A stretch of 64,000 nt of DNA from NCBI GenBank assembly GCA_000004695.1, contig CM000154.2, positions 1,824,001-1,888,000 on the forward strand. Direction: 5' to 3'. The notes beneath the pieces were generated by a model, which did not search any database, had not been told where the DNA came from, and saw nothing but the letters and a program-made list of their open reading frames with translations. A program made the translations under genes and the position numbers. The stretch is from Dictyostelium discoideum (Eukaryota). Position 1 is the stretch's first letter. Each line of letters opens with the position of its first letter. Of this stretch, positions 22,262 through 46,482 are shown one piece after another.

Positions 22262-22429
22262 AAACCAACTTAGTTGGTTTATTATTGAATTTTCTTTTCT
22301 GTTGAATTTTCTGATTTTATTTTTAGAATTTTCCATTTTTTCTTTGAACGTTGAATTCCAAAATTAAACCATAAATGATTTTATTATTAATGTTAATTTA
22401 AATAGAGTTTAAACTTTTTTTTTAAAACC
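22262..22429 (+). promoter_or_regulatory. U1 snRNA upstream promoter block with a DUSE-like element (AAACCATAAA at 22366-22375, about -60)
   Basis: About 170 bp upstream of the U1 start is conserved with the upstream region of the second U1 copy (46315-46482, inverted). The ACCATAA motif sits at -64..-55 in both copies and resembles the Dictyostelium ncRNA upstream element (A/T)CCCA(C/T)AA. Confidence 0.6.
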
Positions 22430-22600
22430 ATACTTACCAGTCATTATCAATATGTGATCATAAAGGCATATTTGATTTCAAAGATTTCAGACCATTGCAC
22501 TTTAAGGTTTGGTTTTTGTATGATCTTCCACAAAGAGGATTCAAGTGACAAATTTATGGTAGTCGTGGATGTTGCGCTAGCGCACTTCCACAACACCCCC
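22430..22600 (+). ncRNA. U1: U1 small nuclear RNA gene (about 171 nt)
   Basis: 5' end ATACTTACCAG is the 5'-splice-site recognition sequence. Stem-loop I loop GATCATAAAGG is 70K-like; stem-loop II loop ATTGCAC is the U1A-binding motif; Sm-like site AATTTATGG; terminal GC-rich hairpin GTGGATGTTGCGCTAGCGCACTTCCAC. Confidence 0.9.
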
Positions 22601-22725
22601 TAATTAATTTTAATGAAAAAAAAATAATAATAATAATAATACCCCAAATTTAGGAAGTGTTTATTTTTTTTATTTTTATTTTTTTTTTTTTTTTTTTTTT
22701 TTTTTTTTATTTATTTTTATATATA

Positions 22726-24153
22726 CTACATATCTTCAACACTCCAATAATAAGATTCTTCAGCTAAATTTTGATTTCTTGATTGTTTTGAGATGAATTC
22801 TTTTTCGAAACCATTACTACGATCAATACCATCCCATCTATAACCGGGTTTAATATTGAAACGATTTGAAGGATAAGGACCTTTGTATTCTGGTTTTTTG
22901 TCTATATCATTTTTATTTGATTTTTTTGATTTCTTTTTTCTACCACTACCACCACCTCCTCCTAGTAATGCCATTGGATCACCCCATCTATCTTTATCGA
23001 TTTGTTCACTATTTAAATCTTCATCATCGATGTATCTTGATAATGGTTTATTGATATCACGTTGAATACGTTCTCTTTCCTCTTCCTCTTTTTTCTTTTT
23101 AACTTTACCAATACCCCATTCCATATCTTTCTCTAATTCAATTTGTTCCTCTAATCTCTTTTTCTCGAGATCCATCTCTTTTTGTTTCTTTGGATCAACC
23201 TTTTTACCTGTAATTTTATCACGATATACTGTTTCTGCATTTCTACCCATCATTCTTTGTTGTTCTCTTAAAAATGTTTCCTTTTGTTCTTTATGTTTTT
23301 TATTCTCTTCTTCCTCTTCTTCTTCTTGTTCTTTTTTACTTTTAATTTCATCAAATGTTCTCTTTCTTGGTGGTGATAAATCTTCATTACTATTTCTATT
23401 TCTATTTCTTGGTGGTGATAAATCATTATTATTATTATTATTTCTATTTCTAGGTGGTGATAAATCTTTATTATTATTATTATTATTATTATTTCTATTT
23501 CTTGGTGGTGATAAATCATCATAATTATTGTTATTATTTCTATTTCTATTTCTTAGTGGAGATAGATCCTCATTGTTATTTCTATTTCTTGGTGGTGATA
23601 AATCTTCATTATTGCTACTACTATTCCTATTTCTTGGTGGTGATAAATCTTCATTATTATTATTATTATTATTATTATTGTTGTTGTTTCTATTTCCACT
23701 ATCACTTGAACTTTTATTTATACCAAATGAAATATTACTACTACCACCAATATTCTTTTTGGTAGTGGGAGGTTCAATCGTTATCCATTGTGATGTTGAT
23801 GATGTTGATGACGATGAAGAAGGAGGAGGTTTAAAATTGAATTGATCACTATTTACAATTAAAGGTTTATCATCTTCATCTTCTTCATTATCATTGTCAT
23901 CATCATAGTTATTGTTATTACTATTATTATTATTATTATTATTATTAAATTTATTTATTAAATTCTTTCTTTTATTTTCATTTGCATCTTTTGATATTAT
24001 TTCTTGTTGTTCATCTATGTCTACAATTTTATTACCTGTAGATACCAATACTTTCTTTTTCTTTTTTTTTTTTTCTTTATTACCGCCGCTTCTATTTGAT
24101 TCATCATTTGATTGTTCGTTTGGTGTTAAATATTTCTTTAAATATTCATTCAT
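22726..24153 (-). CDS. bud13: BUD13/CWC26 (RES complex) homologue, 475 aa
   Basis: N-terminal MNEYLKKYL matches BUD13 (..AEYLKRYL). Central tandem (E)DLSPPRNRN repeats, as in human BUD13. Conserved C-terminal block [32 protein letters not shown]. Confidence 0.85.
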
Positions 24154-43635: not shown

Positions 43636-45387
43636 TTAAACTTTACTTTGATTTTTTTGTTCTTTTTCTTTACATTCGTTACATTTATCTTGTAAGAGTT
43701 CGTGAAGATCTGGGGAAATGTAGAGATTACCATCTTTATTGGTTTCTAAATCTTCGAGATAACAAACAAAGATTGTGTCTGTACCAATACCAACGATATG
43801 AGTGAAAAGATTGAAGATACAAAAAGCGAAAATTGCAGAGAGAGCAATAGTGATTGGATTGAGAGATTTACCCATACCATACAAGAGTGCAGTGGTGAAG
43901 AGAGCAGAAGCAGCTGAACCCAAAATCTTACCTAATAATAAAACCAAACCACCAATGAAATCCATAATGACAGCATTGAACATATTTCTAGAGATGAGAT
44001 CGAAACATTCCTTTGTTGAGGTACAGAATGAATGACCATGCATTGCTACGTAGATGTAACCAAATTTGTTGATCCAACGAACGATTGATTCAATACAACC
44101 CAAAATACATTGAAGACAAGATACTACCATTACAACCAATTTGTTGGTAGCGTTACTGTTCTTACAGACACGTAACATGAATGCCATAAATTCGATAAAA
44201 GCAATGAGTAATGAACCAAATGCTAATGAACCAAAACTTGTACTCAAAGCTCTACCCAATGAACGATAGGCATTCTCTTGACCAACCAATGATTTACCAG
44301 TTGGGTCACGTGAGAAATACCAATTTGAGACGACACCAGCAACACAATGTTGGAATACAGCACTAATAAAAGATGATGCCCAAAAGAAACCAAAGATCAT
44401 AAAGTACATAAGATTTCTAATTTTGGTGTTGAATGCTGATTGTTCTTGTTCACTATCGGTTGAATTTGCTTCTGATGAGGTATGATCATTCAATGGATTG
44501 ACTGTTGAGCCTGGAATACTGAATAAATAAATGAATGAACTTGTCCAATATGCAATGAAACCAATGAAAAATAATACAACTAATGATGCAATAACAAATA
44601 CAGATGGACTACGTTGAACACCTCTACATGTCTCTGTAAACATTGCACATGTTAAATCAATACTCTTTCTAAGATAAACAATTACAACTACTAATACTAA
44701 TGTACAAATTATAATACAACCACCAACAATCATTGTACTTTTTTTTAAAAAAACAAATATATAAAAAAAAAAAAAAAAAAAAATTAGTATGTGTATTTTT
44801 TTTTTTTTTTTTTTTTTTTATATATATATATATAAAACTTACCTTTCACTACCTTCTTTATGACCTAAAGCCATAAATAAACCACCTAAAGTTGCAACTA
44901 AAGCAACACCAACACATAAAGTGAAATAAATGAAGAATCTAGTGAAAGATTTTAATAATTGAATCCAAGCTGCACCCAATGCAATTGCTAATAAAACAGA
45001 GTAAATGAGAATATCTTTATCTCTCTTTAATTCTGCTACTAAACTTTCAAGATGTGAAACAAAGTATTGTTCAATTGGATTTTCAGATGAGGTAGTATTT
45101 GTATTAAAACCTGGAATTGATGGAATATTTGGTGCATTTGGTACCAATCTACTTGGGTCACCTTTTGTGTAGGCAATACCCGAAATTGCTGCCATACCAC
45201 CAATAACTAATAAAAAGAGAATTGTGAATAAAATATCATTACATTTTCTTGAACTATGTTCTGGTTGTAATCTAGTTGATGGTGAAGATGATCCTCCTCT
45301 ACCATTGCTATTATTATTATTACCATTATTAGCAACTCTTGAATTTGTTAATAATGGTTGTTTATAATCTTCTTCTGGTGCCCACAT
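43636..45387 (-). CDS. Choline transporter-like (CTL/SLC44, Pns1) family membrane protein. Exons 45387-44843 and 44737-43636 (about 548 aa).
   Basis: Multipass TM protein with the family's conserved C-terminal block TDTIFVCYLEDLETNKDGNLYISPDL. GTAAGT donor at 44842 and aaaaaag acceptor at 44739-44738. Confidence 0.75.
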
Positions 45388-46143
45388 TTTATTGTGTGTT
45401 CTATCTACTATATTATTATTTCTTTTCTTTTTTTTTTTTTTTTTTTTTTTTTTTTACTTTATTTTTTTTTTTCTTTATACTATTTAATTTTAATTCTGAA
45501 TTTTAATATTTAATATTTAATATTTGTTGACAATATTAATAAAAATTTTGTTATGTGTGAAATTTTTCTTGAGTATTTTTTATAAAAAAGTTAATAAAAA
45601 AAAAATAAAAAAAAAAAAATTAAAAAATTAAAATTTTTTTTTTTAAAAAAAAAAAATAAAATAAAAATTAAAAAAAAATATTTTTTTTAACTCCTGAAAA
45701 AATGATAACTCTCTTAAATTATTGGATTTATTTTTAGTGCGGAAAATGATCAATTTTAGAATAATTTAAAGAAGTATCTTTCTTGGGTTTTTTTTTCTCT
45801 TTTATTTATTTTATAAAAGATATAAATTTAAAAAAAAAAATAATAAAGCTTAAACACAAAAAATAAAAATAAAGCTTTAACCCAAAAAAAAAAAAATAAA
45901 AAAAAAAATAAAAATAAAAATAAAAATAAAAATAAAAATAAAAAAAAAAATAAATTATTTTTTTTTAAATTTTACACTTATTCCCATTTTTTTTTTTTTT
46001 TTAACAATGATTTAATTTTATTTATTTTTTAATATGAATTTATAATATAAAAAATAAATAAAAATAAACACTTCCCTAATTTTGAAGTATTATTATTTTA
46101 TTTATTTTTAATTATTTTTTTTTTTTTTCATTAAAATTAATTA

Positions 46144-46314
46144 GGGGGTGTTGTGGAAGTGCGCTAGCGCAACATCCACGACTACCATAAATTTGTCACT
46201 TGAATCCTCTTTGTGGAAGATCATACAAAAACCAAACCTTAAAGTGCAATGGTCTGAAATCTTTGAAATCAAATATGCCTTTATGATCACATATTGACAA
46301 TGACTGGTAAGTAT
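46144..46314 (-). ncRNA. U1: U1 small nuclear RNA gene, second copy, inverted relative to the copy at 22430-22600
   Basis: The reverse complement is identical to copy 1 except for one substitution (ttatcaa versus ttgtcaa near position 20). Same 5' ATACTTACCAG, ATTGCAC loop and Sm-like site. Confidence 0.9.
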
Positions 46315-46482
46315 GGTTTTAAAAAAAAAAGTTTAAACTCTATATAAATTAACATTAATAATAAAATCATTTATGGTTTAATTTTGGAATTCATTTCTTT
46401 TAAAATTTTCGACAATCCAAAAAAAAAAAATTTCTAAAAATAGAAAATTCAACAGAAAAGAAAATTCAATAATCAACTAAAA
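46315..46482 (-). promoter_or_regulatory. Upstream promoter block of U1 copy 2 with a DUSE-like AAACCATAAA (46370-46379, about -60)
   Basis: About 85-90% identical to 22262-22429 in inverse orientation. Confidence 0.6.

Follow-up and report, generated by a model that had tools for sequence, protein, structure and literature searches.

Multicopy small nuclear RNA (snRNA) genes, the vertebrate U1 and U2 clusters being an example, show concerted evolution. Here we describe two near-identical U1 snRNA genes lying in inverted orientation within a 64,000-nucleotide stretch of the Dictyostelium discoideum genome (GenBank assembly GCA_000004695.1, contig CM000154.2, positions 1,824,001 to 1,888,000 of the forward strand). 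This whole stretch is referred to below as the window, and its positions are counted from its first letter. The window is ~22% GC and encodes poly-Q and poly-N proteins; the proteins neighbouring the U1 genes match D. discoideum AX4 entries (e.g. DDB_G0288717) at 100% identity, and the window is denoted AX4 wherever genomes are compared. The reading that we favour, with a probability of about 0.8, is that of two U1 genes of which the left is ancestral and the right was derived by an old duplication, their cores having been kept alike through gene conversion.

The spliceosomal snRNAs of this organism have been described previously. According to PMC3188802, U1, U2, U4, U5 and U6 have been identified in D. 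discoideum, U1 being credited there to Hinas et al. 2006 (Eukaryot Cell 5:924); the same paper gives 18 rnu genes for the species, and 17 snRNAs are given in PMC11193728. U1 of D. discoideum is already known and the genes are not new, the pair in the window being almost certainly among the published rnu genes. Many noncoding RNA genes of D. discoideum are preceded, ~63 bp upstream, by the upstream sequence element of Dictyostelium (DUSE; PMC3188802), the two-C form of which is typically seen in dictyostelids of groups 2 and 3 and not in those of group 4 (PMC7919456).

Identity and extent of the inverted U1 pair

Both loci were identified in a covariance-model scan of the whole window with Rfam, for which the gathering score of U1 (RF00003) is 69.5 bits. 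The left copy scored 77.8 bits (E = 1.5e-17) and the right copy 76.7 bits, each matching model positions 1-166 and thereby the full model, and the pair accounted for the sole RNA matches in the window at gathering level. The U1 RNA is very AU-rich (36% GC), which is why the scores lie merely ~8 bits above gathering. The two genes are:

22430-22592, + strand: left U1 snRNA gene, ancestral copy (RF00003, 77.8 bits), in the RagA-U1-BUD13 position in 8 assemblies; the mature 3' end may reach a few nucleotides past 22592
46152-46314, - strand: right U1 snRNA gene, derived copy with G rather than A at nucleotide 17 (RF00003, 76.7 bits)

An earlier, sequence-only reading had named U1 on the strength of short motifs and had proposed an Rfam search of both loci; that search, together with the stems, loops and Sm-like site described next, bears the assignment out. 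Nucleotides 1-9 read AUACUUACC and are unpaired in the Rfam consensus alignment, leaving ACUUACC free to pair with the 5' splice site. The loop of stem-loop I, of the U1-70K type (GAUCAnGAAG type), is GAUCAUAAAG, and that of stem-loop II, of the U1A type (AUUGCAC), is CAUUGCACUU. Between helix H and stem-loop IV lies an Sm-like site, AAUUUAUGG, which aligns to AAUUUgUGg of the model and is invariant across all copies. The expectation of a four-stem fold with a single-stranded 5' ACUUACC was borne out: stem-loops I-IV appear in both the minimum free energy (MFE) and the centroid fold, with stem-loop III and helix H present, and the 5' end is free in the Rfam consensus, but the single-sequence MFE fold lengthens helix H and pairs nt 5-11 with the Sm region, a pairing foreign to the family structure. 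We applied the 45 pairs of the Rfam structure to nine different U1 sequences from the clade; standard pairs made up 94.6% of the cells, as against at most 51% with the partners slid. Stem variation over these nine sequences comprised six one-sided compatible changes and zero double compensatory ones, the sequences being too close. The two loci are genuine U1 spliceosomal snRNA genes of D. discoideum, and both are probably functional, each with its own promoter.

Alignment of 22430-22600 with the reverse complement of 46144-46314 confirmed a single difference in 171 nt, at nucleotide 17 (A left, G right; 99.4% identity), exactly as had been noticed at the outset. The copies are convergent, with nine called protein genes between them, and the called genes and the repeat coordinates agree with the inverted arrangement 23.5 kb apart that had been described. 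The gapless inverted repeat spans 22408-22641 and 46103-46336 (234 nt, 96% complementary), its arms lying 23,461 nt apart. Given that the next-best inverted pairs in the region are low-complexity and reach just 71-79%, the U1 repeat is not a product of chance. A further D. discoideum assembly (GCA_054883475.1, A475 below) shows the A17/G17 paralog difference too, so the two copies are no assembly artefact.

The repeat extends beyond the RNA in a patchy manner. Gapped alignment with BLAST joined 22274-22641 to 46103-46477 at 91% identity with 8 gaps, corresponding to a unit of ~370-400 bp; the homologous inverted unit previously put at ~350 bp is thus real and slightly longer. Conservation of ~170 bp of upstream sequence, also proposed, resolves into two conserved blocks separated by a diverged stretch. 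Between the copies, positions -78 to -1 show a single substitution and a single indel (97% identity across the proximal promoter), the next ~45 nt upstream are diverged and indel-rich, and a 32-nt block beyond them is identical in both copies (22281-22312 and 46442-46473). The motif AAACCATAAA, highlighted in the sequence-only reading, is present at 22366-22375 and at the equivalent spot in the right copy. The candidate control elements within the unit are:

22367-22374, + strand: left copy, DUSE-like AACCATAA with its first base at -63, having two C where [AT]CCCA[CT]AA has three
46371-46378, - strand: right copy, DUSE-like AACCATAA with its first base at -64
22399-22404, + strand: TATA-like TAAATA of the left copy, -31 to -26, conserved across copies and putative in function
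46341-46346, - strand: TATA-like TATATA of the right copy, -32 to -27, one substitution from the left and specific to AX4-type strains
22281-22312, + strand: distal upstream block of the left copy with two TTGAATTTTCT repeats, at ~-145 and -128
46442-46473, - strand: distal upstream block of the right copy with two TTGAATTTTCT repeats, the identical 32 nt
22593-22617, + strand: ACACCCCCTAATTAATTTTAATGAA, the conserved flank 3' of the left copy, identical in both copies and largely kept to D. citrinum
46127-46151, - strand: conserved 3' flank of the right copy, identical to the left flank

Compared with the DUSE consensus [AT]CCCA[CT/AT]AA, AACCATAA agrees in position (-63/-64) and in 7 of 8 bases, A replacing the first C, and it is conserved in every U1 copy, including that of D. 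citrinum. Exact WCCCAYAA was not found upstream of either U1 copy; a scan of the window for this pattern returned 2 sites, fewer than chance, both within coding sequence and irrelevant to U1. All four occurrences of the 11-mer TTGAATTTTCT in the 64-kb window fall in the two distal blocks, a count reached in none of 100 shuffles, and the distal block is almost unchanged in D. citrinum. Conservation and position suggest roles for the DUSE-like, TATA-like, distal and 3' elements, and the 3' flank is a candidate 3'-end formation signal.

An ancestral left locus and a derived right locus

Loci from eight further assemblies were obtained through exact protein matches, and additional loci were taken from D. 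purpureum, P. violaceum and T. lacteum. The assemblies named below are:

A475: GCA_054883475.1, labelled D. discoideum
A355: GCA_054859355.1, labelled 'D. discoideum' (divergent)
A385: GCA_054859385.1, labelled 'D. discoideum' (divergent)
A205: GCA_054859205.1, labelled 'D. cf. discoideum'
D. citrinum, two assemblies: GCA_054859325.1 and GCA_054859145.1
D. dimigraforme: GCA_054859025.1

A475 is collinear with the window at 99.4-99.6% overall identity, with 16 mismatches in 21.5 kb. Identity to AX4 falls to 96.4% in A355, ~94.3% in A205 and ~90% in D. citrinum, and A355 and A385 are 98.6% identical to each other. These substitution identities group the genomes as ((AX4,(A355,A385)),A205), D. 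citrinum and D. dimigraforme falling outside. Although both are named Dictyostelium discoideum, A355 and A385 carry ~3.6-3.9% substitutions and many indels relative to AX4, far above A475, and this sequence divergence suggests cryptic species under the D. discoideum name.

The left locus was found to be shared throughout this group. The order RagA-U1-BUD13, with U1 on the RagA strand, is present in the window and in all seven related assemblies fetched (D. discoideum, D. citrinum and D. dimigraforme), showing that the left copy occupies the ancestral locus. Four assemblies with divergence of up to 3.9%, AX4, A355 and A385 among them, have exactly the same left-copy RNA. No U1 was found beside BUD13 in T. 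lacteum, or at the RagA and transporter loci of D. purpureum, so the U1-BUD13 adjacency is confined to the D. discoideum/citrinum/dimigraforme group.

The right locus has a narrower distribution. A U1 gene lies between Sec1 and a choline-transporter-like gene in AX4, A475, A355 and A205, and none was detected by BLAST or Rfam at E<=1 in the Sec1-transporter spacer of D. citrinum or D. purpureum, where the PrpD-Sec1-transporter synteny is retained despite the missing gene. A five-species spacer alignment revealed one orthologous insertion of ~0.7-0.9 kb in AX4, A355 and A205, the shared flanks of which exceed the U1 unit:

45950-46683 (approximate), - strand: insertion bearing the right U1, defined by comparison with D. 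citrinum and D. purpureum, whose spacers are empty

These comparisons show the right copy to be derived, inserted after the D. citrinum split and before the split of A205. Since it sits in the same orthologous insertion at 3.6% (A355) and ~5.7% (A205) divergence, the duplication is old. In mechanistic terms, a ~0.4-kb unit including the promoter was duplicated at the DNA level and came to lie, inverted, in the spacer between Sec1 and the choline transporter. On both sides of the insertion, at 45740-45790 and 46560-46600, a segment of the spacer (containing GAGATATTTCTTTAAATTCTAAAATGATCAT) was also observed as a gapped direct duplicate, which is single copy in D. citrinum; it may represent a long target duplication from the insertion event.

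A205 possesses four U1 genes around the block, two of them in tandem at the left site, one being the right copy and one more lying between a decarboxylase gene and the transporter:

A205 locus L014, 7522-7683 and 9142-9303: U1 genes
A205 locus L016, 9066-9227 and 12477-12639: U1 genes

With four copies in A205, the U1 unit must have spread locally more than once; members of the D. discoideum species complex have between one and four U1 copies around the block, a dynamic number.

Concerted evolution of the core and rival explanations

We compared the copies as substitutions plus indels over a 266-nt core extending from ~-78 to 25 nt past the RNA:

22352-22617, + strand: homogenised core of the left unit, the putative conversion tract
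46127-46393, - strand: homogenised core of the right unit

Within genomes, the left and right paralogs differ in the core by 2+1 in AX4 and 3+2 in A355, and the second left copy and right copy of A205 by 2+0. Between genomes, the orthologs are further apart: 7+1 for the right copies of AX4 and A355, 8+1 for those of AX4 and A205, and 6+2 for the left copies of AX4 and A205. Immediately upstream, over the 73 nt from -151 to -79, the pattern of the core is reversed, with 10+2 between the AX4 paralogs against 1+2 between the right orthologs of AX4 and A355. Furthermore, several derived states occur in the two paralogs of a lineage alike. In AX4, A355 and A385 these are U->A at nt 10, A->T at -6 and A->C at ~-72; A355 and A385 add an A within the T-run at -13 and, at the 3' end of the RNA, an insertion of 5 nt (CACAA). 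A205 and the outgroups have kept the ancestral state at every one of these positions. A 21-nt deletion at -79 is found in the left copies of the AX4/A355/A385 clade only and never moved to the right copy; it marks the upstream limit of homogenisation. The outer flanks cluster by locus, which places the duplication before the species splits. Within the RNA, the right copy has acquired one change per lineage, G17 in AX4 and G21 in A355, each converting an A-U pair to G.U, the G17 pair lying in stem-loop I.

The greater closeness of paralogs than orthologs, together with the shared derived states, shows that the core has undergone concerted evolution. As the mechanism we infer repeated non-crossover gene conversion between the inverted copies, acting atop purifying selection; selection on the RNA is strong, given that AX4, A355 and A385 have one and the same left-copy RNA. 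Under this model the ~270-bp core would be kept near-identical by recurrent conversion while the loci diverge independently outside it, and the indel heterology at -79 and the downstream A/T tracts would limit the conversion tract.

The sequence-only reading had offered recent duplication or ongoing gene conversion as sources of the near-identity, and of the two it is conversion that stands. That recent duplication alone could explain the likeness, with no need for exchange, is suggested by the 99.4% identity over 171 nt and the 97% over the proximal promoter; we nevertheless consider it scarcely credible, as the same insertion, with its shared outer flanks, is present in A355 (3.6%) and A205 (~5.7%), and as the AX4 paralogs differ by 10+2 over 73 nt of the outer unit, where the right orthologs of AX4 and A355 differ by 1+2. 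More substantial is the alternative of an old duplication maintained by purifying selection alone, in which every core position is constrained and conversion plays no part. The invariance of the left-copy RNA across AX4, A355 and A385 fits such a view, as do the conservation of the promoter elements out to D. citrinum and the structure-neutral, A-U to G.U character of both right-copy substitutions. Against this, at least five derived changes present in both paralogs (nt 10, -6, ~-72, the -13 A and CACAA) would each need a parallel origin, and in the core orthologs lie further apart (6-8 substitutions) than paralogs do (2-3), so that selection alone appears unlikely. Several observations do count against our own interpretation: near-identity of the RNA does not in itself need conversion, the left-copy RNA being unchanged across 3.9% divergence; the case for conversion consists of about five shared derived sites, and the CACAA indel could recur by slippage; one site (TTTTAAT/AG) is phylogenetically ambiguous; the A/T-rich DNA makes it uncertain where the insertion and the duplication flanking it begin and end; and the DUSE-like element is one base off the published consensus.

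Two further proposals concern what the right copy has become and what the pair might do. Decay of the right copy as a pseudogene, or its origin as a retroposed copy, would be in keeping with its gathering of single substitutions (G17 in AX4, G21 in A355) where the left copy gathers none, and with the one-base difference of its TATA-like box in AX4. The full upstream promoter region to ~-150, which a retrocopy would lack, is however present; there is neither truncation nor a poly(A) tail at the RNA 3' end; G17 and G21 preserve base pairs; and the right copy scores above Rfam gathering and has been retained in three lineages, making this explanation improbable. The sequence-only reading had also raised inversion of the intervening block by recombination, and a segment that flips between strains or cell states could be imagined from the inverted geometry, the high identity over ~234-370 bp, and the evidence of conversion, which implies that the copies pair. 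Comparison of gene order between strains lent this idea no support. No inverted block was seen among 8 left junctions, all RagA-U1-BUD13, and 4 right junctions, all Sec1-U1-transporter; the contig coordinates of A475, A355 and A205 are collinear with the window; and the block has the same orientation in D. citrinum and T. lacteum, both of which are without the right copy and so display the ancestral orientation. A crossover between the copies would invert the block and is possible in principle, and the assembly sample leaves room for rare events, but an invertible 23.5-kb segment is very improbable. An ancestral left copy and an old derived right copy, homogenised in their core by conversion, remain the interpretation that we prefer.

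Among the sites shared by both copies, nucleotide 10 falls within the recognition sequence of the RNA. Both loci read AUACUUACCAG, with A at nt 10 (22439 and 46305), in AX4, A475, A355 and A385, and the canonical U is found in all 4 copies of A205, in D. citrinum and in D. dimigraforme. In the standard U1:5' splice-site duplex, U1 nt 10 faces exon position -2. A heuristic 5'-splice-site finder aimed at exon position -2 opposite A10 yielded merely 4 sites in the window. One speculative scenario, which we rate as rather doubtful, is that U10->A originated in D. discoideum sensu stricto and that conversion carried it to both genes. If the cell has no U1 genes besides these two, its entire U1 pool would have an altered 5'-splice-site recognition sequence, and conversion would have let a change in core spliceosomal recognition become fixed throughout a small family of genes, with exon -2 usage possibly shifting in comparison with D. 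citrinum; A10 would matter only if it is the sole form of U1 in the cell and the 5' splice sites have co-evolved with it.

Neighbouring features and comparison with known snRNA genes

The gene adjoining the left copy encodes a splicing factor of the RES complex:

22726-24153, - strand: BUD13, pre-mRNA splicing factor (Pfam PF09736, E = 2.5e-42), context outside the repeat

BUD13 is convergent with the left U1, its stop codon lying 134 bp from the U1 3' end, and the adjacency is seen in 8 assemblies; the neighbourhood of a U1 gene and a splicing-factor gene is probably coincidental. A homolog search with BUD13 gave no match from the genus Dictyostelium. The BUD13 coding sequence contains a 123-nt near-perfect hairpin at 23790-23912 (dG -42.3 kcal/mol, z -5.4), the arms of which are formed by Asp/Glu codon runs (GAT/GAA) opposite complementary Ser codon runs. 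A permissive Rfam scan of the window returned, beyond the U1 pair, only two miRNA-like matches, both far sub-threshold. These matches, to mir-598 and MIR5020 at 23797-23905, lie far below gathering and were rejected as reflecting the codon-repeat hairpin in BUD13 and no miRNA. No tRNA genes were found in the window.

Within the block flanked by the U1 genes, two adjacent IPT/TIG-domain (Tgr-type) genes were identified at 32022-34553 and 35437-37854 (- strand). Both are lacking in the syntenic T. lacteum block, and the D. purpureum locus has just one of them. Also in the block are tandem paralogous open reading frames (ORFs) at 39605-40009 and 40937-41341 (+ strand) encoding 134 aa with 55% identity; they belong to genes of ~200 aa with no Pfam domain on record, and the surrounding DNA is duplicated at ~88% identity over 310 nt. 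The ORFs at 44839-45387 and 47813-48514 correspond to exons of spliced genes. Outside the window, the P. violaceum locus (L006) was found to carry two tandem DdR16 box C/D snoRNA genes (18632-18711 and 18928-19007) of equal Rfam score, 296 bp apart.

Confirmation of a U1 call made by eye has little significance in itself, and relative to the spliceosomal snRNA genes of D. discoideum (rnu in dictyBase) the pair shows no essential difference, being the same RNA in the same organism. With canonical Rfam U1 the two genes share the full-length match, the 5' ACUUACC, the loops, the Sm site and stem-loop IV, and they depart from it in having A rather than U at nt 10 and in the form of the Sm site, AAUUUAUGG. 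With the DUSE, the upstream element shares its position and 7 of 8 bases, having two consecutive C residues where the consensus has three. As in multicopy snRNA genes that evolve in concert, paralogs here are closer than orthologs, and the tract covers the gene and its proximal promoter. Unlike tandem snRNA arrays, however, the present family consists of two copies (four in one lineage) that are dispersed and inverted 23.5 kb apart, and dispersed inverted copies outside any tandem array point to intrachromosomal conversion rather than unequal crossing-over. The two-copy, dispersed and inverted geometry and the sharply bounded tract are specific to this case. Together, these features suggest that the pair is a modest but clear-cut case of gene conversion within one chromosome, acting between snRNA genes that are dispersed and inverted, with a sharp boundary at an indel.

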